Assembly (NCBI GenBank): GCA_963793305.1 | Contig: CAWBZV010000002.1 | Coordinates: forward strand, 768,001 to 832,000 | Length of the DNA: 64,000 nt | From: an uncultured Gemmatimonadales bacterium | GTDB taxonomy: Bacteria; Gemmatimonadota; Gemmatimonadetes; Gemmatimonadales; Gemmatimonadaceae | Reading direction: 5' to 3' | Shown: positions 2,842 to 62,039 of the stretch, in pieces | How the letters are laid out: each line of letters opens with the position of its first letter | Numbering within the stretch: position 1 is the first letter of the stretch | Made by a program: the position numbers and the translations under genes | The notes under the pieces: generated by a model | The model's database searches: none | What the model was told of the DNA's origin: nothing | Seen by the model: only the letters and a program-made list of their open reading frames with translations

Positions 2842-2847
2842 TTCGGC

Positions 2848-4461: not shown

Positions 4462-4483
4462 TCGAATAGGAGGTTAACCGGCT

Positions 4484-5227: not shown

Positions 5228-5253
5228 TGGAGAGGCTCGCTAGCTTCGCTTTC

Positions 5254-12300: not shown

Positions 12301-12871
12301 GCTGGTTCGCGATCGTGAGAGAGCGAACCAGGCGACGTCCTCGTCGGGGCTGGCGGAGATGCTGCAGCAGATGCAGCAGCTCGCGCAGCAGCAGGGCCAG
12401 CTCAACGCGCAGTCGCAGGGACTCTCGCTCATGCCTGGCGCGAATGGGCAGCCGAGTGCCGAGGCGCAGGCGTTGGCCGAGCGGCAGCGGCGGGTGGCGC
12501 AGTCGCTCGACGCGGTTGGCGGCGGCGACGCCAGCGGTCGCGCCGACGCCCTCGCGAAGGAGGCGCGCGAAATCGCCGCCGCGCTCGCGCGGAGCGGGCC
12601 GGACCCGAGCACGATCAATCGCCAGCAGCGCTTGTATCACCGGCTGCTCGACGCGGGACACACGCTCGAGCAGGACGAGCGCGATTCGACGGGCAAGCGT
12701 CAGGCGCAGGCGGCCGTCGATCGCCCCGGCTTCGTCCCCGGTTCGGCGCCCGTCGAGGGCAAGAGCGCGTCCAAGTTCCGGGAGCCGACCTGGAACGAGC
12801 TTCGCGGGCTGAGCGCCGAGGAGCGACAGCTCGTCATCGACTACTTCAAGCGCATCAATGCGCAGCAGTAG
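9323..12871 (+). CDS. DUF4175-family membrane-anchored coiled-coil protein with Q-rich linkers
   Basis: N-terminal TMs, 'DSAPKIEI..P..D', 'ATDDHGL' Ig-like segment, long coiled coil, C-terminal 'LVIDYFKRIN'. Confidence 0.8.
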   Translation: MTVHDLVERERARLTRSTTARGGAIATAGVALVLAAAVALLGDARWLDLPPLIPFIVWVLAIGAAAAGIALTVAWLRRNTTRVAVARTIEHERKLRAGALQGALEVENTGALGRRGAADLVARLKGAALAPVTQKSAGRRALAGAFTAVFGVAACVALAQWSPDGWSAVLHPIRAWRGTLLPRLVIDAPADVLRGERTTVRVTAPGRHRVAVYSRTRGAEWSARWYPVNDDGAARLAVGPMDADVALVANDGRAASDTVFVRVSDKPFLGGIALRAIYPAYLKRVDEALPAGEVARVPVGTRIAINGRASTELSAVALVRGADTSHFGVSGHRFEGSLRANLGGSGRYDWRATGTNGAIADLPAALELEVVPDSAPKIEILSPARDTIVTPGDRVEVSLSATDDHGLASIAVRSWRASTNGTAWSNSPVVNETITLPTPAQWSGTSVLDLSQRGLGQGDALHVVAVATDDSPWHQTGMSRELILRVPSVAEERTLARSTADSAASAAASIAQAQRSLEQRTDDASRARGQRNGSPQASPRQNQPGGGTSNGASGQQSMSYASAEQAKALAQEQRQLADKVKSLEQQAKQLEQQLKQAGSLDSGLANELHQAQQLLRDALTPELKAQLDKLDHSAQSLQSGDERQTLGDLAREQQKLREQLERTVDVLKRAALEGSMQTLHDEAKDLAHRDSALSQKSQQSRGQQSPNAQEAKELADRSRDLSHAVDSLSKRLSREKAETGAKGVSEAQPHVDASTQDMDRAAGMQPQTGSQQQANAQQQPGQQPGAQQQPGTQQQPGQLQLRAGQQGAPQPQPGDARQQMAQRSGQPQTGQQAGQQSGQQAAQQGAQEMGQAAQQLADARNAQIGEWKSATTLELDRSIQETLQMARQEQDLAQQAQQNSSDAASLKSEQSAIQQGVDQANARLQKAGRQSALISGNAQRAVSEARAKVQQATSELQANSSAGSQSGGQTGSGQQTAGAMRDAADALNQAAASLVRDRERANQATSSSGLAEMLQQMQQLAQQQGQLNAQSQGLSLMPGANGQPSAEAQALAERQRRVAQSLDAVGGGDASGRADALAKEAREIAAALARSGPDPSTINRQQRLYHRLLDAGHTLEQDERDSTGKRQAQAAVDRPGFVPGSAPVEGKSASKFREPTWNELRGLSAEERQLVIDYFKRINAQQ

Positions 12872-45551: not shown

Positions 45552-46774
45552 AAGTTTTGATCGCGCTCATCGCGGCGCTCGTCATCGGGGCCGCGATCGC
45601 CGCCTCGGGCAATCCGACGCTCCTCGGATTCGCCGACGCGCTCGTGCCGATCGGCACCCTCTGGATCAATGCGATCCGCATGACGGTGATTCCACTCGTC
45701 ATCGCGCTCTTGATCACCGGCGTGGCATTGACATTGGACGTGAAGGCCATTGGCCGCATCGGCAGTCGAACGCTCGTCGTGTTCATCTCGCTACTCGTTG
45801 GCGTGGCCATCGTCTCGGGGATCGTGGCTCCCCTCGTCTTCAGACTCCTCCCGCCCAACCTGGGGAGTCACCCGTCGCTGCCGCCCGGCGCGGCGGAGGC
45901 CGCCGAGCAGCTCGGTGCGGCCGGTGCCACGCCGACGTTCGGCGCGTGGGTCGTCTCCCTCATCCCGCCAAATCCGATCGCCGCGGCGGCGAATGGCGCG
46001 ATCGTGCCGCTCATCATCTTCACGGTGTTGCTCGGACTGGCGATCGCCCACAGTCCGCCCGTTGCGCGCGATCGGCTCGTCGAGTTTTTCGCGGCATTCC
46101 GCAATGCGATGCTGACGCTCGTGCAATGGGTGATCGCGGTCGCTCCGATCGGCGTGTTCGCGCTGCTGCTGCCGCTGGCCGCGAAGAGCGGCGCCGCGCT
46201 GGTCGGCGGCGTTGGGTTCTACATTGTGGTCTACTCCCTCGGGCAGATTCTGGCGACGCTCGTGCTCTATCCCGTCGTGGCCATGTTCGCCCACGTGCCG
46301 ATGCGGCAGTTCGCGCGAGCCGCGTTGCCCGCCCAGCTCATCGCGTTCAGCTCCAGCTCGTCCATCGCCGCGCTCCCCGCGCTCGTCGAGGGCGCCGAGC
46401 GCGACCTCGATCTCCCGGATCGGGTCGCGGGGTTCGTGGTGCCGCTCGCGGTCTCCATGTATAAGATCGCGGCGCCGCTCTCGTGGACCATCGGCGCGCT
46501 GTTTATCGCCTGGTTCTATGGTATCACGTTGCACGTGCGAGAGCTGGGGCTCATCGCGGTGGCGGGTGTGTTCCTCACGTTCGCCGCGCCGGGCGTCCCA
46601 CGGGGCGCGTTTCTCATGCTCACGCCGCTCTTCTTGGCAGTCGGCTTGCCGGCCGAAGGGATCGGGATATTGATCGCGGTAGACACGATCCCCGACTTGT
46701 TCTCGACGGTGTTCAATACAACCGGCAATCTCGCGGCTACCGCCCTTGTGGGAGCTAAAGCCCCAGTTCGCTGA
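45548..46774 (+). CDS. Dicarboxylate/amino acid:cation symporter (DAACS)
   Basis: [51 protein letters not shown]. Confidence 0.88.
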
Positions 46775-47231
46775 GGCCAGGGTGGTTGTCCGGCCGACGG
46801 CCTAACGGCCAGTGGTATTTCCGGTCGGCCTCCTGAATTGGGAGATCGTTGATCGACGCCAGCCGTCGTTGCATGAGGCCATTCTCGTCGAACTCCCAGT
46901 TCTCATTGCCGTACGACCGGAACCAGTGCCCGGAGTCGTCGTGCCACTCGTACGCGAATCGTACGGCGATGCGATTGCCCTCGAAGGCCCAGAGCTCCTT
47001 GATCAGCCGATAGTCCAGCTCCTTGGCCCACTTACGCGCGAGGAACGCGACGATCTCGGCGCGACCATTCAGGAACTCGGCGCGATTTCGCCAGCGCGAG
47101 TCGGAGGTGTAGGCGAGCGATACCTTCTCGGGGTCGCGTGAGTTCCACCCGTCTTCGGCCATACGGACCTTTTGGGTCGCGGTCTCGCGGGTGAACGGCG
47201 GCACGGGTGGCCGCGCTGTTATGGCACTCAT
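46755..47231 (-). CDS. DUF1348 / NTF2-like protein
   Basis: [28 protein letters not shown]...[12 protein letters not shown]...YGNENWEF. Confidence 0.9.
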
Positions 47232-47251
47232 GATCAGTCCGTCTACCAGAT

Positions 47252-47653
47252 ATGAGAAAGCAACGACCGATGCTCGCCGTTCTCGCAATATGCGCTTTCG
47301 TATGGGGAGTGTACATGCTACTCGCGGCGTGGTCGTTTGGCCGAACGGCCCACCGCGTACAGGGACTGATCGTCGATCGTGACAACGCGAATTTCACGGT
47401 GCAGTACATGGTCAACGGTCAGATGCTGCAGTTGACCGAGGCATTGCCAAGCACGAAGGGCATGTCGGGCATGACGAGACAGCAATTGCGGCCCGGTAAC
47501 AGCGTGCCGGTCCTCTACGACCCGGCCCTACCGACGCGAGCGAAATGGGACAGCAATCGCGTGTGGGCCATGCCGGTCGCGATCATGGCGGTCGCTATGA
47601 TCGCTTTCGGCGTCGCAATGTTCCCAAACTTGATGGCGCGTCCCCTACGCTGA
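47252..47653 (+). CDS. DUF3592-like membrane protein
   Basis: TM, small beta domain with [11 protein letters not shown]-terminal TM. Confidence 0.7.
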
Positions 47654-47681
47654 CATGTGGGACGCTATAAATTAGTCCGGC

Positions 47682-48353
47682 ATGGGCCGGCTCGCGATCT
47701 ACATGCAGATGCTCTTCCGTTACAAGCCGCAGCGATACTGGAACGACATCCTCTCGGAGTCGTTCGACCTGCGCGGCGTCGGCCACTTCGGCCGGAGCGA
47801 GGCCGAGAATGCGGCGATGTACGCGGAGAAGCGCGCGATCATCGAGCGCGAGCTCGCGCGCTGCAACGTGGCGCTCGGCCCCGACACCCGCGTGCTCGAG
47901 ATCGGGAGCGGCGTCGGATACTGGACGGAGTTCTTGCGGTCGAAGGGTGTGCGTCATTACACGGGAAACGACATCGCCCCGGTGTCGATCGAGACGCTCG
48001 GCGCCCGCTATCCTGATTTCACGTTCGTGCTCGGCGACGCCGGCCAGATAGCGTTGCCGGCCGCGTCGTTCGATCTCGGTTGGATGATCGACGTGACGCA
48101 GCACATCACCGATGACGCCGCGTTCGATCGCGCGATCACGAACGTCTGGCAGGCGCTCCGCCCCGGCGCGACTTTCGTGGTCACATTCTGGGATCCGGCC
48201 ACGAACAAGTACCTGGCGAACAAGTTACGGTTGAACCGCATCGAGAAGCCGCGCGGGCTCGCGGCCTATCGCGCCGTGTTCGGCGCCGGCGCGCAGATTT
48301 CCGACCCGGCGCCATTCAACGACAAGCACCTAGTCGTCGTTCGCAAACCCTAA
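47682..48353 (+). CDS. Class I SAM-dependent methyltransferase
   Basis: VLEIGSGVG, GNDIA, SFDL, LRPGA motifs. Confidence 0.88.
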   Translation: MGRLAIYMQMLFRYKPQRYWNDILSESFDLRGVGHFGRSEAENAAMYAEKRAIIERELARCNVALGPDTRVLEIGSGVGYWTEFLRSKGVRHYTGNDIAPVSIETLGARYPDFTFVLGDAGQIALPAASFDLGWMIDVTQHITDDAAFDRAITNVWQALRPGATFVVTFWDPATNKYLANKLRLNRIEKPRGLAAYRAVFGAGAQISDPAPFNDKHLVVVRKP

Positions 48354-48763
48354 TGGATATTCGCGTCCAGGCGCTGAACTCATCGGATTGGATGGAGCTG
48401 CGCGATGCGCGTCCGGCCGATGAAGTCTCGCTCTACCGCGCGCTCTTTCGCGTCCAGGTCGACGGCCAGGTGCACAACCGTCCGTTCTGGTTCGACCGCT
48501 CTGACCTCGACGAGTTCGCCCACGATCTCGCGTGGCTGGACAAGGCGGTCGGCGGCCGCGCGACCCTCAACCACGCGGGTCGTCCCGAGTACTTGACGGT
48601 CGTGATCGAAGCCTCAGGAACAGCCTACGTCACCGGCGAGCTCTTCGACTTCGACGACCCTGACCAACACGTGCGCTTTCGCCTCCAACAGAGCCGCGCT
48701 TCGCTCCGCACGCTATTGCGCGACGTGCGGACGCTGCTCGATATGCGCGTACCGCCGGGCTGA
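48353..48763 (+). CDS. Hypothetical protein
   Basis: TAATG coupling to upstream gene; globular composition. Confidence 0.7.
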   Translation: MDIRVQALNSSDWMELRDARPADEVSLYRALFRVQVDGQVHNRPFWFDRSDLDEFAHDLAWLDKAVGGRATLNHAGRPEYLTVVIEASGTAYVTGELFDFDDPDQHVRFRLQQSRASLRTLLRDVRTLLDMRVPPG

Positions 48764-48773
48764 CCTGCTTATA

Positions 48774-48858
48774 CGGAGGGCGAGGGACTCGAACCCCCAA
48801 GCGGCTTTCGCCGCGCCAGTTTTCAAGACTGGTGCAATAGCCATTCTGCCAGCCCTCC
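48774..48858 (-). tRNA. tRNA-Ser(TGA)
   Basis: GGAGGGC acceptor, anticodon arm CCAGT-CTTGAAA-ACTGG, variable arm GCGGCGAAAGCCGC, GGTTCGAGTCC. Confidence 0.95.
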
Positions 48859-49013
48859 TGACAACGTCACAAGCTATTGGCGCTGTGACGCTTGAGCAAC
48901 TTACTAGCGCGGCACCGCGCGCCGCGTCTTCGGCGAAGTATGACTCGGGCGCGTGCTCAGCGAGAAAGCTGGGGATAAGCAAGCTGGCCTACACTGCGGA
49001 ATGCTATGGGCGC

Positions 49014-49151
49014 GGGTTAACGCTTGGCGTTTCGGCGCGTGGCCACTTGCTCGTGGTAGTGCATACCGATGTCGAGGACGAAATTCGACTCATTTCGGCT
49101 CGACAGGCAACCCCGCGCGAGCGACGCCAATACGAAGAACACGGCCCGTAA
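49014..49151 (+). pseudogene. 5'-truncated BrnT toxin
   Basis: LTLGVSARGHLLVVVHT...IRLISARQATPRERRQYE is the BrnT C-half; N-terminal WD..K...N..KH part absent. Confidence 0.75.
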
Positions 49152-49168
49152 AGTGGCCGTCTGTCGCA

Positions 49169-49345
49169 ATGGCTGACGACGAAATGCGAGACGAGTACGA
49201 TTTCAGCGGCGGCGTACGTGGGAAGTACGCGGCGCGCTACGCGCAGGGCACGAACATAGTCGTGCTCGATCGCGACGTAGCCGAGATCTTTCCGACATCG
49301 CGTCGTTTGGACTATCAGTTGCCGCACTCGTTGTCTCGCTGGTAA
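49169..49345 (+). pseudogene. BrnA-like antitoxin, 3' end lost
   Basis: EMRDEYDFSGGVRGKYAARY...VVLDRDVAEIFP then diverges before the expected VN.ALR helix. Confidence 0.7.
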
Positions 49346-49807
49346 CCGCATGGGCCACCATGTGGCGTCGTGGTCGCGTCTGCATGACGCAGCCGACGCT
49401 CATTCACTTTGGGTTCGATCGAAGCGTGACGAGCGACGGTGTCAATCTGAAGGCGAGGATCTATCTACGCACCTTGCTGTTCAGCAGTGGAAAGCACGGG
49501 AACATTGTTGAGAACATGTACATGCGGGTCCGTCGCGGAGATACGGTCCAGACATTCAATGTCTGGGTTGCCACCGGATGGGACGGAATTCGTCTTTAGA
49601 GAGGGGGAGTATACCCTCGAGATGTGCGCGACACTGTTCCGGGTAAGGCAGCCGATCAAACTACACGAGTCCAAGCTCTCGCTTCGAGTTACGGATGCGA
49701 ACATCATGTCAGACACTCGCGCGGGTTGCTATTTCGATTGGAGTCCAGAGTCGGCACGCTATCATAATCACGTCGAGTCTGCGCCGCGGCCAGCCTTGAG
49801 AGAGTAG
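49330..49807 (+). pseudogene. Fragmented hypothetical gene
   Basis: Two successive frames (49360..49599, 49487..49807) with protein-like composition, lower GC. Confidence 0.4.
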
Positions 49808-49957
49808 CCGCTGGCAAATTTGGTGGTACTCCGGCCAACCACCCGGAAATGAGTGATATCACTCGACGAGAATCACCCGCGTCTTGCTTGTCGCTATGGC
49901 TGGCACTTGTGTTCGGCGGCTGCCGACGGCGACCGGTCGTCGCACTCCGGTAACCCG

Positions 49958-50581
49958 TCAGACGCGCCGCGGCAGGAGCACCAAGTCGGCCGCTTCCTCA
50001 GCATCTTTGAGGAGCGTCTTGCGCGGCGTGCCTATCCGCGCTCGCATGGTCAAGCCACGAGCAAAATCCGTGACTTGGATCGCGCGCACGACTACCGGAA
50101 AGTCAGGCGGGATGTCTCCCGCACAGATCCCGTCCCGGAAACGGCGCTCCACCAGCGCCGCGGCGCCCGCGACCGCGCTCTGCAGGAACCGCCGAACCTC
50201 AGCGTCGTTCACGAGCGGCGCGACGCATTCCAGAAGGCACCCCCGGGCGGACCCTTTCTCGGTCGCACTTTCGACGGCGTACCTCAGAAAGCCCGCGATC
50301 GAGTCGCGAAGACCCTGTGGCGAGAGGAGCGCCTTCGCGGCTGATGCGCCCTTCCGTTCTGCGTACGCCCTAAGAACGCGCAAGAATATCGCCCGCTTGT
50401 CCCCAAAGACGGCATACAGGCTCGGCCGTCCCACACCCATTCCGGCGACGAGATCGTCAATCGTCACTCCGTCGTAGCCCTTCGACCAGAACACCTGAGT
50501 CGCCTTTTCCAGCGCCCCCGTCTCGTCGAAGCTGCGCGGTCGACCCCGCGGCCTAGCGTTATTTTGAATCATTTGGTTCAA
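49958..50581 (-). CDS. TetR family regulator (ComR-like)
   Basis: RGRPRSFDE, FWSKGYDGVTIDDL, SLYAVFGDK, RGCL. Confidence 0.92.
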   Translation of the reverse strand: MNQMIQNNARPRGRPRSFDETGALEKATQVFWSKGYDGVTIDDLVAGMGVGRPSLYAVFGDKRAIFLRVLRAYAERKGASAAKALLSPQGLRDSIAGFLRYAVESATEKGSARGCLLECVAPLVNDAEVRRFLQSAVAGAAALVERRFRDGICAGDIPPDFPVVVRAIQVTDFARGLTMRARIGTPRKTLLKDAEEAADLVLLPRRV

Positions 50582-50634
50582 AACTCATTGACAATGGCCA
50601 TCGCACCAATAATATATAACTGAATAGTTCGAAA
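50562..50634. promoter_or_regulatory. Divergent promoter with TetR-type operator
   Basis: Near-palindrome ttttgaatca-tt-tggttcaaaa at 50562-50583; TTGACA at 50588 followed by an AT-rich -10 region. Confidence 0.6.
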
Positions 50635-50699
50635 TTAGCATGGCACTGGCCTCGCGCGGCCTCACGACTCGACCTTCACCCTTCACCACGGAGACGCCC

Positions 50700-51674
50700 A
50701 TGAAACATTCGATCGCACTCGTCACCGGCACCACCTCCGGGCTCGGTTATGCGGCAGCCAGCATGCTCGCCGCCGAGGGCTGCCGCCAGGTCATCGTCAC
50801 CGGGCGCAGCCTGGCCCGGGTCCAGGAAACGGCCGCTCAGCTCGCGGCTGAGACCAAGACCCAGGTCTTCACGCCGCTGGAGCTGAATCTGAACGCACGG
50901 ACCAGCGTCCAGTCCGCCCTCGCCGAGCTGGTCAAGCGAGGTCGGCCGATCGATTTCCTACTGCTCAATGCAGGGATGGTCGGAGGTAAGAAGCGCGTGC
51001 TCACTGCGGCGGGTATCGAGGAGGATCAGGCCCCGCTCATCGGCCATCATCAACTGACTGTCGGGTTGCTCCGCGCCAACCTGTTGAGCCCCAACGCGCG
51101 GATTGTTATCGCCGGCTCGGAAGCTGCCCGAGGGGACGTCCCTATGTTCAGCTACACCGACGTGGCGGCCTTCGCGGCCAAACACCACCAGGGTGACCGA
51201 ACCGCTGCTGTTGAAGCCCTGGTGCGCAACGGGCCGAACGTGAAGTACGAGCCCAACCGGGCGTATACCGACGCGAAGCTCATTATCGCTTGGTGGGTCG
51301 CGGCGCTGGCGCGCCGGCTACCCTCCGGCATGGCCGTGTACGCTGTCTCGCCCGGTGCGGCGACCGACACCAAGGCGGTGCGAAACGCTGGCCCGGCGTT
51401 GAAGTATCTGTTTATCCCAATCGTGAACCTCATTCCCGGCATGAATCAGACGCCGGAGACCGCGGCCCGTCGGTACCTCCAGGCGTCGGAGTTCGGAACC
51501 GACGTCTCAGGCCAATTCTTCGCCTCGGCGCCGAAGAAGCTCACAGGCCCAATTGAGGCGATGCGCCACCCACACTTTCACGATCGCGCCAACCAGGAAG
51601 CCGCGTGGCAGGCCGTCGTTGAGGTCTCCGGCGTCGACTTGTCTTACCCAGCATCCTTGAGCGCGGTGTCCTGA
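50700..51674 (+). CDS. SDR oxidoreductase (retinol dehydrogenase/protochlorophyllide reductase-like)
   Basis: LVTGTTSGLG, LLLNAG, YTDAK, AVSPG. Confidence 0.88.
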   Translation: MKHSIALVTGTTSGLGYAAASMLAAEGCRQVIVTGRSLARVQETAAQLAAETKTQVFTPLELNLNARTSVQSALAELVKRGRPIDFLLLNAGMVGGKKRVLTAAGIEEDQAPLIGHHQLTVGLLRANLLSPNARIVIAGSEAARGDVPMFSYTDVAAFAAKHHQGDRTAAVEALVRNGPNVKYEPNRAYTDAKLIIAWWVAALARRLPSGMAVYAVSPGAATDTKAVRNAGPALKYLFIPIVNLIPGMNQTPETAARRYLQASEFGTDVSGQFFASAPKKLTGPIEAMRHPHFHDRANQEAAWQAVVEVSGVDLSYPASLSAVS

Positions 51675-52361
51675 AGGAGCGCCGGTCGCGGCGAAATGGT
51701 CGCGGTGACCAGAATAAGCATGCGATTGCGGAGCTACGTGGTCGTCCACGGTGTGACCGACCTGGGACCGCCGGTATTCTCTGCGTATGGCACGGCGAGC
51801 GGAAGACGTGCGTTGCTGTGCGTGCTGGTCTGAACCATGATGGCCGAGCATCCTCGGAAACGCCAGAGGCATTCCGAGTCGTGTTCGACAGTCTTCGCCT
51901 GATGCAGATTCGCTGACGCGGCGAGTTCATGTGCTCTCATGATGGGGCTCGCGTGCTGTAAGTGGCGATACGGAACCGCGAGAAGGCGACAGGATAGACG
52001 CTCGGTCCAACCGGTCTATCGAGTAGTCCGCACGCGCGGCGCATGAACGCCGAGGACATCGCGTCAGCACAAGGTCAGCGTCGGACTATCGGTCTCCAGA
52101 TATCCGATTATGCGCCGGCAAGGAGCTTGAGCAGTTGGATGACCGCTGGCATGTACGCCGACCGATAGTGGAAGCTGCGCTTATCCAGCTTGTCAACGAG
52201 GCGACACACCACTTTCTCGATCTTCACCCGAGCGTAATCGGTGACACCGGAGGGGCACAATCTCGCCCACCGCGCGATCGCCGGCGACGAGTCGCCTGCT
52301 CGCGACCCTAGATTGACCACTTCAGGCTTGCCTTCCGATCTCGCATGACGATCTTGCTTGC

Positions 52362-53114
52362 GTGAGACGCTGGATCTATTTGCCGGCCGGCGGCCGAATG
52401 GTCGCGGTTGCGTGGGGGCTCGGGCTGCTCATCTTTCCCATCCTGAGCGCACTGGCGGCGCCGCATATCGAGCGATTGGACCTCCCGGAGCATCCCGGAG
52501 GCGTCGTCCAGTCACTTGTCCTCCTGATGATCGGCCTCGTGGCCAATGGCGCGCTGTTCTTCATTCACATTAACGGCGCGTTCCTGACGTGGCGAACTGC
52601 CGCGCGGCCATTCCTGGTCACCCTGTTCATGCTGCAACTGTGGTGCGGCATCGTCGTTGGCATCTGGCTAATGTGGAACGGCACTGTTGCGCTCGCCGCG
52701 CTCAACGGCCGACCCATTGATGGTCCACTGACCGCCGCGTGCGCGGTCGCTGCGGTTGGCGCGCTCTTGGCGCTTCTCTTGGTATCCGAGTTCTGGAAAG
52801 ATCAGGATGACGATGTCGTCAAGGTGCGCGAAGCTCGGACGAAGGCGCTTGCACTCTATCCCGCCGTTTCGGCGGGAAAGAGCAGCGCCGAAGAGCGGGA
52901 CCGGTTTGTCCAGTTGCTGAAGACATTGAACGAAGAAGCCAAGGCGCTCGAGGCCAGGTTGACGGAGCCGGATCGAACGCTGGCTGGCAAGTGGCGTAAG
53001 GCGGCCAAGCGCTTGTACGACGCGGCATATGGGTATGAAGCGAGCAAGCCATTCACGGAGACGAGCGCAACGGTGGCCGAGGACGAACGACTATTGAAGC
53101 TCGACTACCCCTAG
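52362..53114 (+). CDS. Hypothetical protein, ~4 TM plus charged helical C-domain
   Basis: Four hydrophobic segments then a charged helical tail; first gene of GroEL-variant operon; start uncertain (GTG 52362 or ATG 52398). Confidence 0.7.
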   Translation: MRRWIYLPAGGRMVAVAWGLGLLIFPILSALAAPHIERLDLPEHPGGVVQSLVLLMIGLVANGALFFIHINGAFLTWRTAARPFLVTLFMLQLWCGIVVGIWLMWNGTVALAALNGRPIDGPLTAACAVAAVGALLALLLVSEFWKDQDDDVVKVREARTKALALYPAVSAGKSSAEERDRFVQLLKTLNEEAKALEARLTEPDRTLAGKWRKAAKRLYDAAYGYEASKPFTETSATVAEDERLLKLDYP

Positions 53115-53125
53115 CTGGATATCGC

Positions 53126-53704
53126 ATGCCTACGCCGGGACAGGAAATCGCACTCCTCGTAGCGGTGCTCGATGATGACAACCCCGCGATATGGGTGCCG
53201 TGGACGAAAGCATTCGACGTGGTCAAGAAGGAGGTTAGCGCCCAATCGCCGCGATACTCCGAGATCCAGCGCGAGGACGTGTTGCTCCGCATGCACCTGG
53301 AGCTCGACGATCCGAACAAGTTGATGGGGCTTCGGGCGGAGGACATGGTCCATCACGTCGGCGTGGTCGTCGATGGCATCAGCGTCGGGTCGAATAAGCA
53401 TCATGCCCAACAGATCACGGACCGATTGGCTCAGTTGTGCGCGCGACTGAAGACCTGCGCAGACGCGTTCTTCCGATCCACCGGGTTTTATCTCTTCGTT
53501 GCCGGTGTGGAGGAAGGTCACCGGGCGTTTGATAACTCTCAGAAGGCGTTTCGCGAGCAACTCGTCGATCGAGCGGGACAACGGCTCGGCATCGAGCCCA
53601 AGGGTTTATTCGCATTGGAGGTCCTCAATGAGGTGGACCTCGTGCACACCATACGGCACGCGACGGAGCTGGCCATGAGGAACTATTCCTTTAGGGCCCG
53701 CTAA
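53126..53704 (+). CDS. Hypothetical alpha/beta protein
   Basis: 11 nt after upstream stop; stop overlaps GroEL start (TAATG); alternating hydrophobic strands and helices. Confidence 0.72.
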
Positions 53705-55584
53705 TGGCGGCGAAAGAGATTCTTTTCAGCGGCGATGCCCGGGAGGCGCTCGTCGCGGGCGCCGAGCGTCTCGCGCAGGCGGTATCCGTGACGCTGGGGC
53801 CGAGAGGAGGCTCGGTTGTCATCCAGCAGGCAGGCGGGGCGCAGCCCTTGGTGTCGAGGGATGGCTACACGGTCGCCCGGAATATTACCCTGAATCGCGA
53901 ATCTGATACGGGGGCGGCCATGCTGCGCGACGTGGCGGAGCACACGGCCAAACAAGTCGGCAATGGAACATCGACCGCCATCGTGCTCGCGCGGGCGATC
54001 TATCGCGAGGGCATCAAGCGTGTGGCCGCCGGTATCGATCCCATGGCCCTCAAGCGTGGTATCGATCGTGCCATTGCCACGATCGTTGACCAGCTCAGAA
54101 AGGCGAGCGTGAAGGTCACCATCTATTCATCGGCGCAGGCCGCGCTGGCGGAAGTCGAGCACGAGACCGGCCGCACGACGCTCGCCAACGTCGCGCGGAC
54201 GTGCGTGGGCTCTGACGTTGCCGACCGGTTGCCGCCAGCGTGGTCGAATCACGACGTGCGCGCGCGCACATTCCTGCCGGTCGACTACTGGCGTCAGGGA
54301 CGCGCGGCCAGTCTGTCGGTCGATACGCTCGCGCAGATCGCCGACCGCGTCGATGATGAGGGACGGCGCCGGGCCGACGAAGCCCACTCGCGATATTCGA
54401 GGCTCTCCGATGTCGCCACGGTGGCCGCGAGTGGTGACGCGGGCGTGGGCGCGATCATCGCCCAGGCGTTCGCGGCGGTCGGGCGAGATGGGGTCATCAC
54501 TATCGTCGACGGACGGGGAGCCGATACCTCAGTGGAAATCGTTCCCGGCATGAGCTTCGACCGGGGCTATCTGTCGCCGTACTTCGTGACCGACACCGCG
54601 AAAGCGGAAGCGGTTCTCGAGGACAGTTACATTCTCCTCTACGACAAGAAAATCTCGTCGATGAAGGATCTGCTCCCGATCCTCGAGAAAATCGCGCAGG
54701 CCGGCAAGCCGCTGCTCATCATCGCCGAGGATGTCGAGGGTGAGGCGCTGGCGACGCTCGTCGTCAATACGATTCGCGGCATCCTGCGTGTGACCGCGGT
54801 CAAAGCGCCGGGGTTCGGCGATCGCCGCACGGCGATGCTGCAGGATATCGCAGTGCTCACGAACGGACGGGTCATCTCCGAGGAAGTCGGCCTCAAGCTC
54901 GAGAACGCGGCCTTGGACGATCTCGGCAAGGCCAAGCGTATCGTCGTCGGCACGGAGAGCACGACAATCATCGAAGATGGACACGAGCGCGGCGATCTCG
55001 TGTCCGGCCGCATCAAGGAGATCCGTTCGGCAATCGACAAGTCGACCTCCGATTACGACAAGGAGAAGCTCCAGGAGCGGCTGGCGAAGCTCGCCGGCGG
55101 CGTGGCGGTGATTAATGTCGGCGCCACGACCGAGTCGGAGATGAAGGAGAAGAAGGCCCGGGTCGAGGACGCGTTGCATGCAACGCGCGCCGCGGTCGAA
55201 GAGGGTATCGTTCCCGGTGGTGGCGTCGCGTTGATTCGCGTGCAGCCGATGCTCACCACGTTCCGGTCGGGCGATGCCGACGAGCAGGCAGGCGTCGAGA
55301 TCGTGCGTGACGCGATCGAGGAGCCCATCCGCGTCATTATGCGAAATGCGGGCGGTGAGGGCTCGATCGTCGTCCAGAAGGTGCGCGAGTCGGACGATGA
55401 CGCGTTCGGTTACAACGCCCTGACCGATACGTACGAGAACCTGATCAGGGCCGGTGTCGTCGATGCGACCAAGGTAACGCGGACGGCATTGCAGAACGCC
55501 GCGTCGCTGTCGGGGCTGCTGTTGACCACGAACGCGCTGGTGGTCGACCTGGCGTACCAGCCCGCCGATGTCGGAGCGACCTGA
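53704..55584 (+). CDS. groL: Divergent group I chaperonin (GroEL paralogue) with ~90-aa insertion and GNGTST in place of GDGTTT
   Basis: [72 protein letters not shown]. Confidence 0.92.
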
Positions 55585-55586
55585 CA

Positions 55587-57080
55587 ATGCGCTCCAAGAT
55601 ATTCCTACTGATGGTGGCGGTCATCGGGTGCGCTGGCGGCGGCACGGCCCCGAAGTCCCCCTCGATTGCGCTGTCCCTCGTCGGCAGCAATCAGACGGAC
55701 ACGGTCAACACGACGCTGCTGCAAGCGCTGGTGGCGCGTACGCTCCCCCACGAGCTCGTGCAGTTTCAGTCCCTGCCCGATAGCGGCAATCTGTATGGGG
55801 CATTCGTCGAGTCGCTCGCGATACCCGACGCGACGACCCTCATCGCCGACTCGACGGACGCCAACGGGCAAGCGGCTGTCGTCGTCTACCTCGGCCAGAT
55901 AGCCGGACGGGCGCGCATCATCGTCACCGTGCCCAAATATGGTATTGCCGATACGGCCACGTTCACTGTCCAAGCCGGACACCTGGTCGCCATCACGGGC
56001 ATCCCGGCCGATACCACGGTGTACTCCGGGGGTAAGTTTGTGCTGCAGGGCACTCCGGTCGATCGCTTCGGGAATCGACGGACGGATCCCATCTCGTTCC
56101 ACGTCTTGTCCGGTCCGGCCACGCTCTCGGCGGATACCGTGACGGCCACCGCGCTGGGGTTTGCGTACGTCGCGACGACGTCAGGGTCGGTGGCCGATAC
56201 GACATTCATCTCGGTCGTCCCCACCGGGCGCATCGCGGTGTCGCGCAGCCCGTACATTCACATTTTCAATCTCGATGGCACGGACTCGGTGTCCATCCTG
56301 CCGAACATTGGTGGGGTCGGCAACGTGCGTTGGGCTCCGGATGGGAAGTCGCTCGTGTACGATGGGATGTCCGGATGCTCGATCACGGCGATCGGCAACA
56401 ACGCGCCGATCGCCGTCGCGAATCTCAGTGGTGGCGCGGCCGCGCTCCAACTCCCGACATTCTATTACGCGTACTATCCGCAATACGCGCGCGACGGCTC
56501 ACGCATCTACTTCACGATGCTCAATCCCAACGGCCAATTCTGGGAAGGCGATCCCAAGACGCTCGCCATCGATTCGCTCGGTCTCGCGCCGGACCAGGAC
56601 TACGCACCTTCGCCCTCGCCCGACGGATCACAGCTCGCGTATTTCCACGCGACATTGAACGTTACGGGCGTCCTCCGCGTCCTCACCCTGAGCACCAGTG
56701 CGGTGACCGATCTGGGTGTCCCCGCCAATCAACCCGTGTGGTCGCCCGTGTCGAATCAGATCGCGTACGTGGCGGCGGGCACCTGCCAAGGCCAAATCCA
56801 TATCATCAATTCCGACGGCTCCGGCGATCGCCGGCTCTCGCCGAACACGTACAACAGCGGCTTCGACTGGTCGCCCGACGGCGCGTGGATCGTCGCGCTC
56901 AATTCGGTGACGGGAAAGATCGACGTGATAAACGTCGCCTCGGGGCAGGCCCTGCCGCTGACGTTCACGTCGGGATTCAGCTCGCCGGCTTGGTTACCGA
57001 CTACTCCAGCCCCGAGACAAGATACAGCTCCGAAAGAAACCGGGCATAGCCGTACACGTACGATCGGCCATCGGCGCTGA
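55587..57080 (+). CDS. Lipoprotein with Ig-like domains and TolB/PD40 beta-propeller
   Basis: Lipobox VIG-C; TDANGQA Big-1-like motif; WAPDG, PSPDG, WSPV, WSPDG blades. Confidence 0.82.
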   Translation: MRSKIFLLMVAVIGCAGGGTAPKSPSIALSLVGSNQTDTVNTTLLQALVARTLPHELVQFQSLPDSGNLYGAFVESLAIPDATTLIADSTDANGQAAVVVYLGQIAGRARIIVTVPKYGIADTATFTVQAGHLVAITGIPADTTVYSGGKFVLQGTPVDRFGNRRTDPISFHVLSGPATLSADTVTATALGFAYVATTSGSVADTTFISVVPTGRIAVSRSPYIHIFNLDGTDSVSILPNIGGVGNVRWAPDGKSLVYDGMSGCSITAIGNNAPIAVANLSGGAAALQLPTFYYAYYPQYARDGSRIYFTMLNPNGQFWEGDPKTLAIDSLGLAPDQDYAPSPSPDGSQLAYFHATLNVTGVLRVLTLSTSAVTDLGVPANQPVWSPVSNQIAYVAAGTCQGQIHIINSDGSGDRRLSPNTYNSGFDWSPDGAWIVALNSVTGKIDVINVASGQALPLTFTSGFSSPAWLPTTPAPRQDTAPKETGHSRTRTIGHRR

Positions 57081-58999
57081 ACAAAATATGCGAGATGGGC
57101 CCGAGACCGGTCATGTCGGTCGGGCTCACCGCGCGGAACGGTTCGCGTTGCCCCGTGAGCACGTTGACACGGTACACCATGACCGGTGCTTGCTTCGCCT
57201 GATACGCGTAGATGAAGCGTGGGTCGGCGGTCCACTCGATTGTCTCGCCGGGCAGGAGACCGGGGATCGCGCGTGGCGCACTGCCGTCGAGTGGGTAGAT
57301 CGAGCCTGCGCCCGCAATGGATTTGCCGTCGGGCGATGGCTCGCACGATGACACGCCGTCCGGCGTCACGGGACGCGGCGCGCCGGCGTCGATGCTTTGA
57401 ATGAAGCAGCGGATCGCATGTCCAGGCTGAGTGGCGGGGAAGACGATCTGCTTGCCGTCAGGAAGCCAGTGGGCGCCGTGCCAATATTGTTGGACGTCGC
57501 CGCGCGGGAGGCGCTTGGCGGCGCCAGCGCCGGTGGGCAGCACCATGAGTTGAGTCGATGCGACGACCGTGGTCGCCCATTTCCCATCGGGTGAGAGGTC
57601 GCCAGCCAGCCCGTCTCCCAGTGGAATCGGGGACGCGGCGCGAAGGTCGCGCATGCCGACAATGTAGTTCGGCCCACTTTGCTCGCTCTGTTCGCTGAAC
57701 AAGACGGTGTTGCCGTCGGCGGAGAGACCGACGGGGAGCGACCAGTCGAGCCACGAGAACGTCGCGTTCGCTGGTCGCGCCAGGCGCCAGGGCCAGCATC
57801 CCCACGCGACAGTCATCGCGCGTGAGCAAGACGCGGCCGTCGGCGGCAACGTCCTGCAAGGTCACGCCACCAGGTGCGCGGTAGAGGAGACGCAGGTGGC
57901 CACGAAGGTCGACCGCGTAGAGATGGCGTTCGACACCGGACTCCGTGGCGGTGAACCACACGTTGGATCCGTCCGGAGACCACGCGAGCCCCTGGGCGCT
58001 TCCCCAGCCGCGAGAGAGGACGGTTCGATGCCCCGAGAGATCGACGACGGCGACGACGCCGTGATCGTCCGGCGCGGCCTCGTGGTCGAGGAAGGCGATC
58101 CGGTCGCCTCTCGGTGATACGCGCGGATGGCTGATCCAGCCCAACGTCTCGTACAGCGCGTGGCCGACGGGGAACTCGAGGCGCTGTTTGCCGGCGACGC
58201 TGTGAACGATCGCCAGCGTCTTCGCGTCAGGCGCATAGTCGGCCCATTCGACATCCTCGGCGATCTGTCGAGGCGACCCGCCGCCCAGCGACACTTGGCC
58301 GAGGGTGCCGCGGAGCGTCAACAAGAAGCGGGGGGCGGCTGATTGGAGGACAGCGACCGCACCGGAGGGGGCCACGGCGAGTAGGTCCGTGCCGTGCAAC
58401 CCCAAGCTGCGAGCGCCCGGGATCTTGGTGTCGGTCGAGTAGATCTCGATCGGACCGCCATCCCAGGCCGCGGAGTAGAGCACGTTGCGGCCGTCCGGGG
58501 CGAAGCGGGCCGAGTAGATCGTGCCGCGCTGGACAGTCAGGCGCTGGAAGTTTGGCGGCTCTTTCCGGGTCGCTCGGTATCCCAAGAATGCGCCGAGTCC
58601 GAGACAGCATGCGGCGACCGCTACTAAGACCGGGATCCGATTCGGGATCGGGGATCTGGAAGGCGGCGCCGTCGGGCTGTCGAGTTTCGCGACAAATCGG
58701 TAGCCCCGGCGCGGCACCGTCTCGATGTAGGACGGATTCTCGGCCGAGTCGCCAAGGGCCGACCGCAGCTTACCGACCGCGACGTTCACGGCGTGGTCGA
58801 AGTCGCCGAAGCTCTCGCGCGGCCAGATCCGGGTCTGAAGCTCCTCGCGCGTGACCAGGTCGCCAGGGCGCTCCAACAGGACCTGGAGGACCTTGAACGG
58901 CTGATCCTGGAGCTTGATGCGCTCGCCGGCTTTCCGGACCTCTCCGGCGTGGAGATCGGCCTCGAATGGGCCGAATCGGATGCTCCCGTTCTGTGTCAT
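57001..58999 (-). CDS. Membrane-anchored CadC-like winged-helix protein with TolB-like propeller, +1 frameshift near 57760
   Basis: FGPFEADL, LQDQPFKVL, VTREEL, YIETVPRRGYRF; TM; PD40 blades; frames 57458..58999 and 57001..57849 join as ERDVSWLDW. Confidence 0.85.
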
Positions 59000-59114
59000 C
59001 CCTTGGCAAATCTACAGGAGATCTCCCTCTCCCGCGGGTCTACACAGCGGCTAGGTCCCGTGAATTGAGACCGCGGGCTCTCCGAGGCAAAGGTAAGAAA
59101 AAAAGGAGAAACCT

Positions 59115-60119
59115 GTGTTGAGATGGCTTCTGCTCACCCTGTTGGTTTTGCCCGTACGCGACGGGCAGCACGATTTCGACTTCGGCGACGGCACCTGGCA
59201 TTCACAGATTCGGCGGTTGCAGCATCCGCTGACGGGCTCCACCAAATGGCTGGACTACGATGGCAAGGTGGCCTCTCGCAAAGTGTGGGGCGGAAAGGCC
59301 CATCTGGAGGAGCTCGAGGTCGACGGTCCGACCGGGCACCTCGAAGGGCTGACCCTGCGCTTGTACGACCCAAAGGCCCACCAGTGGAGCCTGAGTTTCG
59401 CCAATAGCGCCGATGGCACGATCGGAGCGCCGCTGATCGGCGCGTTTCAGGATGGTCAAGGGGAGTTCATCGACCAGGAGTCGTTCGACGATCGGGCGAT
59501 CCTGGTGCGGCACCGGTTCTTCGAGATCACGCCAGGCTCGCACCACTTCGAGCAGGCGTTCTCGCTCGATCGTGGGAAGACGTGGGAGCCGAACTGGATC
59601 GCGACGCTGACGCCGATGAGCGGCCCGATCTCGACCGACACCGCGCACCAGCACGATTTCGATTTCAACATCGGGACGTGGAAGACCCACATCAAGCGCC
59701 TCATGCACCCGCTGACCGGTTCCACGACGTGGGCCGAGTATGGAGGAACCCATACTGTGCACACAGTCTGGAATGGGCGAGCGAACATCGGCGAAATGGA
59801 AGTCGATGGCCCGAATGGGCATATCGAGGGGCTGCAACTGCGGCTTTACAACCCGCAGTCGCACCAGTGGAGTCTGGCCTTCGCCAGCAGCGGCGAGGGC
59901 AAATTGGGCCAGCCGGCGATCGGAGAATTCGCCAATGGCCGCGGGGAGTTTTACAGCCAGGACACCTTCAATGGCCGCGCCATCTTGGTTCGGAGCGTGT
60001 ATTCCGACATCACCCCCACATCGTGTCGCACCGAGCAGGCGTTCTCCGTTGACGGAGGGAAGACCTGGGAGGTGAACTGGATGTCCGCCGATACGCTGGT
60101 ACAAGCCGATGCGCGGTAA
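59115..60119 (+). CDS. Tandem-duplicated DUF1579-like protein
   Basis: Two copies of QHDFDF..GTW...I.RL.HPLTGST.W ... EQAFS.D.GKTWE.NW. Confidence 0.8.
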   Translation: MLRWLLLTLLVLPVRDGQHDFDFGDGTWHSQIRRLQHPLTGSTKWLDYDGKVASRKVWGGKAHLEELEVDGPTGHLEGLTLRLYDPKAHQWSLSFANSADGTIGAPLIGAFQDGQGEFIDQESFDDRAILVRHRFFEITPGSHHFEQAFSLDRGKTWEPNWIATLTPMSGPISTDTAHQHDFDFNIGTWKTHIKRLMHPLTGSTTWAEYGGTHTVHTVWNGRANIGEMEVDGPNGHIEGLQLRLYNPQSHQWSLAFASSGEGKLGQPAIGEFANGRGEFYSQDTFNGRAILVRSVYSDITPTSCRTEQAFSVDGGKTWEVNWMSADTLVQADAR

Positions 60120-61161
60120 GTGCCTGATCCTCGCGGTCATGCCGGTCGTCTGCGCGGCGCAATCGCAAGTGCTCTCGATCCCGCTCAAGAGTCAGCGCGC
60201 CGCGGTCTCGCAGACCATCGGGCTCACGGACATCACGATCATCTACCACCGGCCACTCGTGGGCGGCCGTGTGATCTGGGACAGTCTCGTGCCCTACGGG
60301 AAGGTGTGGCGCACGGGAGCGAACATGAATACGACGATCACGTTCACCGATCCCGTGCGCATCGACGGGAATCCGCTTGACCGCGGGACGTATGGGCTGC
60401 ACATGATTCCAGCGGCAGATGAGTGGACGGTGATATTCTCGAAGAACTCGACCTTGTGGGGGTCATTTACGTACGACCAAACCGAGGACGCGTTGCGCAT
60501 TCGCGTAAGACCAAAAAGGAGCGACATGCACGAGGCGTTGACGTACGAGTTCGATGATCTCGCGCCAAGTTCGACCATCGTCGAACTGTTATGGGCGAAG
60601 GTCGCAGTACCTTTCACGGTGTCGGTCGATGTGCATGCGGTCGCGCTGGCGAGTCTCCGAAACCAGCTGCGCATGTTGGCGCGCTACACGTGGCTGAGTT
60701 GGAACGATGCGGCGAACTATTTGCTCAACGAGAAGATCGCGCTCGATACGGCACTGGCGTATGCGGACACGTCCATCACGAACGAAGATCGGTACGAGAA
60801 TGAGATGACCCGATCGAAGATCTTGACGGCCCTCAATCGACAGGCCGACGCCGAGGTCGCGCAGCGGAAGGCGCTCGATCTCGGCACGCCGAGCGAGGTC
60901 GACGAAGTCGCGCGCGAGCTGTTGGCACGGAAGCGCACCGTGGAAGCGCTGGCGGTCTTTCGGCTGAACGCTGCCAAGCATCCGAACGACTGGTTCGTGC
61001 ACGACGGTCTCTCACGCGTGTACAGCGCGCAGGGCAAGTTCGACGACGCGACGAAAGAGATGCGCGCGGCCCTCGCCGAGGCGCCCCCCGATCAGCGACA
61101 TCGCTTGGAGCCTCTCCTCACCGCGCTCGGCGCGAAACAGGACATCAGCACATCGCAATGA
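60109..61161 (+). CDS. DUF2911 domain protein with C-terminal TPR
   Basis: SQRAAVSQTIGLTDITIIYHRP, LVPYGKVWRTGAN, YDQTEDALRI. Confidence 0.88.
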   Translation: MRGKCLILAVMPVVCAAQSQVLSIPLKSQRAAVSQTIGLTDITIIYHRPLVGGRVIWDSLVPYGKVWRTGANMNTTITFTDPVRIDGNPLDRGTYGLHMIPAADEWTVIFSKNSTLWGSFTYDQTEDALRIRVRPKRSDMHEALTYEFDDLAPSSTIVELLWAKVAVPFTVSVDVHAVALASLRNQLRMLARYTWLSWNDAANYLLNEKIALDTALAYADTSITNEDRYENEMTRSKILTALNRQADAEVAQRKALDLGTPSEVDEVARELLARKRTVEALAVFRLNAAKHPNDWFVHDGLSRVYSAQGKFDDATKEMRAALAEAPPDQRHRLEPLLTALGAKQDISTSQ

Positions 61162-62039
61162 ATTGTCGCCTGCTTCTGTGCAGCGTCCTGTTCACGGCGC
61201 CAGTGCTCGCGCAGCCGGCGCACGAACCGCTTGGAGACGCCTGGTGGACCGGCCCGATGCTCGCGCCCTCCGCGGGCACGCTGCCACCTGGCCATTGGCT
61301 CGTCGAGCCGTACGTCTATGACATCAAGACCGCCCACGCGGACAACTACGGCTCGCGAGCCTACGTCATCTACGGGCTCCTCGACCGATTCTCGGTCGGG
61401 GTGATTCCCATTCTGGGTTTGAACGACGGGATTGGGCTCGGCGATCTCACGGCGCAAGCGCAGTATCGGCTCACGCAATTCCAGCCGGGCAGTTGGGTGC
61501 CGACGATGTCCATCGTCGTGCAGGAGACATTTCCGACTGGCACCTACGATCGACTCGGCACGAACACGAGCAATGCGCTGGGTGCCGGCGCGTATGCGAC
61601 GACCTTGGGATTCTACTCACAGACGTACTTCTGGATGCCGAACGGGCGCATTCTCCGCGCCCGCCTGGACCTGTCCCAAGTCGTCTACTCGACCAAGGTC
61701 CACGTCGACGACGTCAGCGTGTACGGCACGGGCCCGGGTTTCCTCGGGCACGCCCTACCCGGTCTGTCGTCCTCAGCCGATCTCGCGGCCGAGTATAGCG
61801 CCACCCAGCGCTGGGTGCTGGCACTCGATGCCGCGTACGGTTGGAATGGCGACACGCGCGTGGATGGCGACAACGTCCAGTTGCACAGCGGCTGGAGCGA
61901 GTCGCTCGCCCTCGCGCCGGCGGTCGAGTACAACATGAGCTCGAGGATCGGCGTGCTGCTCGGCGTCCGGTTTATCGACATCGGGCGTAACACGACCCAC
62001 TCGGTGTCGCCGGCGCTGGCCGTGAATATGGTCTACTAG
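61158..62039 (+). CDS. Outer-membrane beta-barrel 'transporter' (MetA-pathway/phenol-degradation-like)
   Basis: Signal peptide; DAWWTGPMLAPSA, GLGDL, PTGTYDRLG, APAVEYN, terminal aromatic residue. Confidence 0.8.
   Translation: MNCRLLLCSVLFTAPVLAQPAHEPLGDAWWTGPMLAPSAGTLPPGHWLVEPYVYDIKTAHADNYGSRAYVIYGLLDRFSVGVIPILGLNDGIGLGDLTAQAQYRLTQFQPGSWVPTMSIVVQETFPTGTYDRLGTNTSNALGAGAYATTLGFYSQTYFWMPNGRILRARLDLSQVVYSTKVHVDDVSVYGTGPGFLGHALPGLSSSADLAAEYSATQRWVLALDAAYGWNGDTRVDGDNVQLHSGWSESLALAPAVEYNMSSRIGVLLGVRFIDIGRNTTHSVSPALAVNMVY

Follow-up and report, generated by a model that had tools for sequence, protein, structure and literature searches.

What is a gene for GroEL doing behind two genes of no recognised family, with groES nowhere beside it and with an extra domain set into its own product? 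The question is raised by positions 52,362 to 57,080 of a 64,000-nucleotide stretch, here called the window, from an uncultured Gemmatimonadales bacterium (GenBank assembly GCA_963793305.1, contig CAWBZV010000002.1). A first-pass annotation, made from the letters of the window, had described there a candidate system consisting of a membrane protein, an alpha/beta protein, an 'ATP-site-altered' GroEL and a propeller lipoprotein. As set out below, the first three of these genes, here the 'triad', are a conserved, rare, horizontally moving three-gene module, and its GroEL is a mosaic. What the module does is read here, tentatively, as a membrane effector gated by a chaperonin, by analogy with toxin-antitoxin-chaperone (TAC) systems. 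The genes and features at issue are the following.

52362..53114, + strand: Gene 1 (P0001), 250 aa, GTG start; a four-transmembrane (4-TM) protein with a soluble C-terminal part
53126..53704, + strand: Gene 2 (P0002), a 192-aa alpha/beta protein of an unnamed family
53704..55584, + strand: Gene 3 (P0003), a GroEL paralog of 626 aa, without an adjoining groES and without a GGM tail
54112..54399, + strand: the insert domain within Gene 3, residues ~137-232, all-helical
53962..53964, + strand: codon 87 of Gene 3, AAT, a private variant to Asn at a position that is Asp in GroELs
55587..57080, + strand: Gene 4, a lipoprotein with a TolB/PD40-like propeller, 497 aa; islet cargo, not a member of the conserved triad

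The four open reading frames (ORFs) are co-oriented and closely packed, as first described: coordinates and junction sequences agree in placing TAG, 11 nt and ATG between Genes 1 and 2, a TAATG overlap between Genes 2 and 3, and TGA-CA-ATG, i.e., a 2-nt gap, between Genes 3 and 4. That the third product is a GroEL is upheld by TIGR02348 at 695.9 bits (cut-off 582.1), to which PF00118 adds 233.3 bits (cut-off 34.3; E=6.9e-69), each profile matching P0003 in two stretches because of the insert. With the profiles for the chlamydial variants GroEL2/GroEL3 (NF038370/NF038369) P0003 scores below cut-off, that is, 168.5 and 218.8 bits versus 600. Nothing in the whole window matches Cpn10, and no family is assigned to Genes 1 and 2 by Pfam, NCBIfam, PADLOC or PHROGs. 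The usual position of groES is, as had been claimed, occupied by two unfamiliar genes.

The triad across loci

The order TM gene, then small-protein gene, then insert-bearing GroEL gene is seen in 5/5 loci with enough DNA, these being the window, L009, L010, L013 and L014, and the lineages involved are Gemmatimonadaceae-like, Thermoanaerobaculia and one unknown taxon. L009, the close relative, is a 2.7-kb metagenome contig. L010 is a metagenome contig of 22.6 kb, its three genes encoding 251, 194 and 639 aa with 4-nt overlaps at both junctions, and L013 and L014 are from two Thermoanaerobaculia metagenome-assembled genomes (MAGs). The GroEL insert occupies one and the same position throughout. 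L009 and L010 were retrieved via the small protein, and L013 and L014 instead via the TM family (a 4-sequence alignment). As retrieval was through one gene, the other two genes are independent observations at each locus. In none of L009, L010, L013 and L014 is there a groES between the small-protein gene and that of GroEL. The co-occurrence of the two upstream genes with a divergent GroEL, which the first-pass annotation had put forward as a check, is in this way found at all five loci.

The gene 3' of GroEL differs among the window, L010 and L013, and for this reason the lipoprotein is placed outside of the conserved core, bearing out the doubt about its membership that had accompanied its description. 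Its description as a propeller lipoprotein otherwise stands: the Gene 4 protein begins with a lipobox-like ...VIGC, which by the lipobox rule we take to be a lipoprotein start, and its C-terminal half is TolB/PD40-like. The last ~27 codons of Gene 4 extend into a conserved flank, the boundary of which is at 56999-57008.

Two other candidate loci, L011 and L012 (36% over 52 residues), were dropped as chance matches inside a heptosyltransferase-like ORF. The groELs of L013 (7340-7422) and L014 (about 5280-5295), in addition, each display an apparent single-base 5' frameshift, in different places, which could come from misassembly of similar paralogs in the MAGs or else be real inactivation.

The GroEL variant and its nucleotide site

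The nucleotide-site motif D-G-T-T-T, the Asp of which is Asp87 by the numbering of E. coli, is absent from the window GroEL, where codon 87 is AAT and the residues read GNGTST. In a search with the insert as query the closest relatives were P0006 (95% identical) and P0007 (78%; filed under Gemmatimonadaceae by its NCBI name), both of which carry GDGTST instead. A metagenome contig of almost the same sequence (run X1, differing at 4 of 1887 bases) has G at the position of 53962, resulting in GAT, i.e., Asp, and distant insert-bearing versions, P0045 and P0048, have a canonical GDGTTT. On these comparisons D87N is a private single-base variant of the window copy and not a family trait. The label 'ATP-site-altered' is correct, that is, for the Asn codon of the window copy, but does not carry over to its relatives or to the X1 contig. 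The associated idea, of an ATPase-dead GroEL that traps its substrates, fails at the family level because it rests on that private variant, with P0006, P0007, P0045, P0048 and the X1 contig all having Asp.

The apical domain is, likewise, kept. The stretch DRGYLSPYF along with an 11-residue stretch are invariant in all aligned insert-bearing copies, and these presumably are the hydrophobic substrate- and GroES-binding helices H and I. At the family level, the aligned sequences indicate, insert-bearing GroELs retain both their nucleotide-site motifs and their apical hydrophobic face. A GGM-type tail is kept in L010 and L013 and is lost in the window's clade, which also has a divergent N-terminal third, as seen upon alignment with housekeeping GroELs.

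The inserted domain

Residues ~137-232 of the window GroEL, an insertion of ~96 residues, are without counterpart in other GroELs. In alignment with solved structures, query residues 3-136 correspond to chain residues 1-134 and the query from 233 onwards to the chain from 141 onwards, such that the insert replaces roughly residues 135-141 of solved GroELs, at the equatorial/intermediate junction. We take these replaced residues to be the equatorial-to-intermediate crossing, near the lower hinge and on the outer wall of the ring. Across lineages the insert is ~96-115 aa in length and helical, and its AlphaFold2 (AF2) model is of a helical domain with a terminal 30-residue helix (predicted local distance difference test, pLDDT, 87.7). 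No fold match to this domain was found in the PDB (Foldseek best E=4, VIA-align best Z=4.7). The inserts are nonetheless homologous to one another, window versus L013 at E=5e-10 and L010 versus the window and versus L013 at 2e-4 to 2e-3.

A helix-turn-helix (HTH) or DNA-binding role for the insert was considered on account of sequence patterns and weak Pfam matches, to HTH_31 (E=0.015, L013 insert) and to VMAP-M2 (E=0.0071, a piece from L014), and was rejected for want of support from Foldseek or VIA-align. In the L010 GroEL (P0045; L010 10531-12450), at residues ~140-255, a segment resembling the first intermediate helix (…EEIGHVASVSAN…) precedes the insert, and a degenerate copy of it follows. 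The repeat has the look of a small duplication on both sides of the insertion, whose other lineages show just the post-insert copy of that helix segment in recognisable form.

A mosaic GroEL

Once the insert columns are taken out of the alignment, a phylogenetic tree does not unite the five insert-bearing GroELs in one clade, and forcing their monophyly costs 144.7 log-likelihood units (approximately unbiased, AU, test, p=5.4e-10). The group of the window, P0006 and P0007 branches instead from its own lineage's 'b' paralog (G003b and the C21 copy of the window's own genome; support 92/98). The L013 copy lies inside of the Thermoanaerobaculia housekeeping GroELs, beside the copy of its own genome (83/81, within a 100/99 clade), and has the two-residue indel of Thermoanaerobaculia GroELs, with the L010 copy a long branch at the base of that Thermoanaerobaculia group. 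Each backbone is, by these alignments, close to its host's own housekeeping GroEL, and the insert and the two upstream genes are what is common across lineages.

The same division is seen in G+C content at third codon positions (GC3), with Fisher p values for insert versus backbone:

L013: insert 0.54, upstream genes 0.54, backbone 0.78; p=3e-6
L014: insert 0.55, upstream genes 0.62, backbone 0.84; p=4e-7
L010: insert 0.72, upstream genes 0.75, backbone 0.94; p=6e-11

No such insert/backbone contrast is present in the window or in L009. Nucleotide identity of the variant to resident groEL copies is 69-72% in the window's genome and 82% in genome G061. Recent gene conversion was considered and set aside, with no long identical tracts found between variant and resident copies, and any homogenisation therefore is not recent. 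We infer that the insert would travel with its two partner genes, on a backbone that either arose from the local groEL or was homogenised with it time and again. The GC3 contrast alternatively could be a consequence of codon-usage selection on a duplicated, highly expressed backbone, an explanation which leaves the tree unexplained.

As to selection, ratios of nonsynonymous to synonymous substitution (dN/dS; simple Nei-Gojobori, window versus L009) are 0.20 for GroEL (0.19 before the insert, 0.25 within it and 0.18 after), 0.27 for the aligned part of the TM protein and 0.72 for the small protein. Housekeeping groEL pairs of this clade, with the same script, give 0.09-0.19. At 0.20 the GroEL variant therefore is constrained, if somewhat relaxed, and is not decaying; a value near 1, by which the first-pass annotation would have recognised a decaying duplicate, is not what is seen.

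Nor is this the only groEL of its genome. The 5.7-Mb assembly (26 contigs) carries one more groEL on contig C5 and another on C21, each preceded by groES, and its only two Cpn10 matches are the ones on those contigs; separate, canonical groES-groEL operons, the presence of which had been raised as a further check, thus exist. Upstream of the C21 groES by ~60 nt there is an inverted repeat (L006 1414-1440) that, with 1 mismatch, resembles the consensus of CIRCE (controlling inverted repeat of chaperone expression). By the same consensus no CIRCE-like element is present in the window, nor within L007 upstream of the C5 groES. The C21 groEL itself (L003 939-2577) is split into two overlapping frames, of 256 aa and 365 aa, which may be a frameshift or an assembly error.

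The two partner proteins

Hydropathy supports the original description of the first product as a 4-TM protein, with hydrophobic segments at about 13-35, 50-72, 84-110 and 122-145 followed by a soluble C-terminal part of ~105 aa. A search of 1.84 billion proteins for its family, which is unnamed and founded on P0001, gave 34 further representatives at E<=1e-3, and at E<=1e-10 there were 18 proteins, the window's own included. Members are ~250 aa long with near-invariant W145, K146, R159, W211 and A215, and ten that were looked up all come from metagenomes or MAGs, most of them as a single sequence. The ESM Atlas supplied only leads below 0.8 for P0001. One family member, P0015 (413 aa, on a 110-kb metagenome contig), has an N-terminal extension of ~160 residues, which may be a wrong start call or a fusion. 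Of the other members, P0013 is on a contig of 378 kb and P0010 on one of 9.6 kb.

The family of the small protein consists of 6 sequences after a profile search, with one other close relative, P0005 (63%), among 5.8 billion clustered proteins. The ESM Atlas had no usable match for P0002, and a profile scan of genome contigs with the small-protein alignment was without a match. Invariant within the family are a V-x-D...P-x-x-W-x-P-W motif following strand 1 and V-G-x-x-x-D at strand 3. The AF2 model is a (beta-alpha)5 three-layer sandwich (pLDDT 75.6; predicted template modelling score, pTM, 0.77), agreeing with the original alpha/beta call. In this model the invariant D16 and D83 are at the ends of strands 1 and 3, and residues 19-50 are a loop of pLDDT<50 that holds the invariant P20, W23, P25 and W26. 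Best structural neighbours are GTPase domains (Z 10.4, root-mean-square deviation, rmsd, 3.5, over 157 residues), GDSL esterases, flavodoxins and receiver domains (Z 7.7-7.8), to be read against the search tool's stated background Z of 7-8. The P-loop GxxxxGK[ST], DxxG and NKxD motifs are all missing from the P0002 sequence, and its likeness to small GTPases is one of fold only.

The islet beside tRNA-Ser(TGA)

The triad had been placed, correctly, in an accessory region next to tRNA-Ser(TGA) and a decayed toxin-antitoxin (TA) gene, the relevant features being these.

48774..48858, - strand: tRNA-Ser(TGA), by ARAGORN; left anchor of the variable islet
48865..56998, no strand: variable islet of 8.1 kb with a BrnT remnant, TetR, a short-chain dehydrogenase/reductase (SDR), the triad and the lipoprotein gene; absent here in same-genus genomes
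48885..49151, + strand: truncated BrnT-type toxin fragment, a decayed TA gene (PF04365, E=2.7e-9, profile positions 42-77 of 77 only)

Window positions 46000-48864 and 56999-62000, on either side of the islet, are 94% identical to contig C45 of genome G001. The spacing between these conserved flanks varies, from 8.1 kb here to 4.7 kb in G001 (C45), 1.1 kb in G004 (C117) and ~6 kb in G005 (C120). The left flank as shared with G001 and G004 stops at about 48864-48893, directly past the tRNA gene, and both of those genomes have a tRNA-Ser(TGA) at the equivalent place, with the variable stretch of G004 containing an unrelated 259-aa ORF. By these alignments the genus has a hotspot for cargo beside tRNA-Ser(TGA).

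Window 48920-49932 and 51750-51894 are represented by pieces, 83-94% identical, that lie together on G001 C73 (302412-303613) without TetR-SDR between, as if TetR-SDR may have been inserted into a mobile backbone common to both. Past the other end of the islet, an OmpR-type (Trans_reg_C) regulator with PD40 repeats occupies window 57458-58999 (- strand), an overlapping frame at 57001-57849 also has PD40, and the last ~27 codons of the lipoprotein gene overlap the 3' end of that regulator. As the second frame has PD40, and the G004 ortholog ends at the islet boundary, this regulator may be frameshifted here.

Beyond the site itself, the module is seldom met. With the TM-family profile there was 1 weak match (G091, E=7.5e-6, a 399-aa frame) among 400 other genomes of the window's phylum, Gemmatimonadota, 0 among 400 others of G061's class and 0 among 400 others of G061's phylum, the three samples partly overlapping and amounting to about 1,200 genomes from two phyla. 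The small protein was found in 0/60 close relatives, and viral contigs scanned with the TM family held no relative of it. Near-identical pieces do occur in soil and 'urban' metagenome runs, from at least 3 studies.

What the triad may do

The three products presumably act together, with the insert and/or the apical face of GroEL binding the small protein. The reading put first here, at a probability of about 0.35, is of a TAC-like, chaperonin-gated membrane effector. The TM protein would be the effector, and the small, fast-evolving alpha/beta protein would restrain it while itself depending, as inhibitor or adaptor, upon the dedicated GroEL copy. To this end the small protein may dock on the insert and/or offer its invariant P-x-x-W-x-P-W loop to the chaperonin. 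The GroEL variant would be the sensor, one that may assemble alone or mix into host rings. Were that copy to become occupied or diverted, for instance under proteotoxic stress or when phage structural proteins arrive in excess, loss of the small protein would release the effector, with an outcome of the abortive-infection or stress-arrest type. A host-like backbone, in turn, would keep the sensor recognisable to whatever engages host GroEL.

Counted in favour are the 5/5 triad order, the tight coupling of the genes, the mobility of the islet and the missing CIRCE as compared with the C21 operon. Also counted are the host-like backbones with their shared insert, the matching GC3 of insert and upstream genes, the purifying selection on GroEL and TM protein alongside a fast-evolving small protein, the invariant apical stretches, and the invariant aromatics in a low-confidence loop. 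To these may be added the position of the L013 triad, which lies between a caspase-like gene, with an alpha/beta-hydrolase and one gene of no assigned family (2005-5479), and a DUF1156/HmaB-like DNA methylase plus DrmB homolog, a DISARM-like set (9305-12721). Precedent is counted too, in the SecB-type TAC systems and in the chaperone guarding proposed for bNACHT25 and DnaJ, both described below.

Various points weigh against the chaperonin-gated effector. L013 is the only one of the three loci with informative flanks (1/3) that adjoins recognised defence genes: the neighbours of L010 had no defence match, and the window islet carries TetR, SDR and lipoprotein genes rather than defence genes. 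PADLOC-DB 2.0 returned 0 families for P0001-P0004 and for the L010 triad, and PHROGs had no match for the three core proteins. The census of triads rests on about three lineages, and given such extreme rarity, selection for a general defence role is not evident. The TM protein is unlike any known effector, and the small protein, as a folded alpha/beta domain, is unlike a typical small, labile antitoxin, its dN/dS of 0.72 being one that could equally reflect relaxed constraint. Where the insert sits relative to the ring, presumably on its outer side near the lower hinge, is taken from the general architecture of GroEL, and the TAC scheme is put forward by analogy.

The main rival, nearly as probable, is that there is no conflict role at all, and that the triad is instead a dedicated chaperonin tethered to the membrane, anchored there by the 4-TM protein, with the insert serving for docking and the small protein as an adaptor. 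Such a chaperonin would fold or hold membrane-associated or exported clients, which here could be the co-transcribed lipoprotein, an exported-lipoprotein gene being just 2 nt downstream in the window islet. The retained apical substrate-binding stretches suit this explanation, as do the family-level DGTTT and GGM-type tail, the purifying selection on the GroEL variant, and a TM charge distribution that suggests, by the positive-inside rule, a cytoplasmic N-terminus and C-terminal domain. Specialised GroEL paralogs without an adjoining groES are, moreover, well known (PMC5904260). No conserved, client-like fourth gene goes with the triad, however, the downstream genes differing in the window, L010 and L013. 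Sporadic, islet-borne spread along with a small-protein dN/dS of 0.72 would also be unusual for a housekeeping folding aid, and tethering supplies no reason for the backbone to track that of host GroEL.

A more far-reaching and doubtful proposal is that the triad is a chaperonin-based immune sensor, in which the GroEL copy would be a decoy or guard copy of host GroEL, kept host-like by recombination with the resident groEL. The domain grafted at its hinge would report engagement of the chaperonin by phage capsid clients or phage co-chaperonins, and the small protein would then unleash the 4-TM effector.

Less probable again is that the small protein is an alternative chaperonin co-factor or regulator, with the TM protein as signal input, in which case a degenerate GTPase-like or receiver-like switch could set the activity of rings containing insert-bearing subunits. 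This proposal draws upon the groES position of Gene 2 and its translational coupling to GroEL, upon the fold likeness to small GTPases (with receiver domains lower) and upon the invariant acidic D16 and D83. Lacking, however, are any P-loop, DxxG or NKxD as well as any Pfam match, the Z values are but modestly above background, and the fold is nothing like the GroES beta-barrel. Least credible is that a groEL duplicate is simply decaying beside two orphan genes with no joint function, for though D87N in the window copy, the apparent 5' frameshifts in L013 and L014 and the loss of the GGM tail in the window's clade may be cited on its behalf, it is largely refuted by an identical three-gene order in all five loci, from about three lineages, together with a dN/dS of 0.20 overall and 0.25 in the insert, and the nearest relatives are without D87N. 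The frameshifts, found at differing points of metagenome assemblies, could come from misassembly of similar paralogs.

Comparison with known systems

The combination represented by the triad appears to be undescribed. No account was found of a GroEL with such an insert or such partners in a literature search that covered few subscription journals, leaving absence unproven, and no insert-bearing GroEL of this kind is mentioned in the available portion of a review of atypical type I chaperonins. Few proteins have been studied as much as GroEL, and yet here is an extra-domain version of it, always encoded after two unfamiliar partners. Whatever its function, this is an unusual mosaic for the paralog of an essential gene, i.e., with common insert and partners upon host-like backbones. 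Two new protein families and one new domain are defined as well, with confident models and, for the insert, no match to a known fold.

Other non-canonical GroELs, such as mycobacterial Cpn60.1/GroEL1, chlamydial GroEL2/GroEL3 and Myxococcus GroEL2, provide one comparison, though to our knowledge none of these has a ~100-aa domain at the junction or a conserved operon with a TM protein. Their likeness to the triad's GroEL is in being an extra copy without its own groES, in an altered C-terminal tail and in a presumed specialised function (PMC5904260; PMC3578752). Phage T4 gp31 is a likeness of another kind, i.e., of a non-groES gene beside chaperonin function (bioRxiv 10.1101/2024.02.24.581848). 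The middle protein of the triad differs in being a (beta-alpha)5 protein rather than a GroES/gp31 beta-barrel, and no phage association was found for the triad by PHROGs or by the viral-contig scan.

With bNACHT25 and DnaJ, the guarding of host chaperones by an immune sensor has been proposed, and the idea in common (PMC12169576) is that a phage which depends on host chaperones can be detected through that dependence. There, it is a NACHT protein along with the host's DnaJ, whereas here a modified chaperonin is encoded in the triad itself and there is no NTPase sensor.

Closest are the SecB-type TAC systems, in which a chaperone stabilises the antitoxin and senses phage capsid or tail proteins, with titration by those structural proteins and with aromatic patterns as recognition code (PMC11618068; bioRxiv 10.1101/2024.02.24.581848). 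Like TAC systems such as HigBAC and CmdTAC, the triad is mobile and made up of three genes, the last of which, after two partners, encodes a dedicated paralog of a housekeeping chaperone; a further likeness is the invariant aromatic loop of its middle protein. In TAC systems the toxin and antitoxin are of recognised TA families, and the antitoxin has a chaperone-addiction element. It differs in that its chaperone is a GroEL with an inserted domain, the three core proteins having no SecB match, and in that neither the 4-TM first protein nor the folded alpha/beta middle protein matches a known toxin or antitoxin family. If the immune-sensor proposal were true, then the triad would be the first GroEL-type counterpart of SecB-type TAC, and an example of a mobile cassette, a domain together with its partners, that is built anew upon an essential gene of every new host. 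If a chaperone-gated effector is what the triad encodes, then the TAC principle would reach beyond SecB to the chaperonin that many phages need, and 'guarding the folding machinery' would become directly testable.

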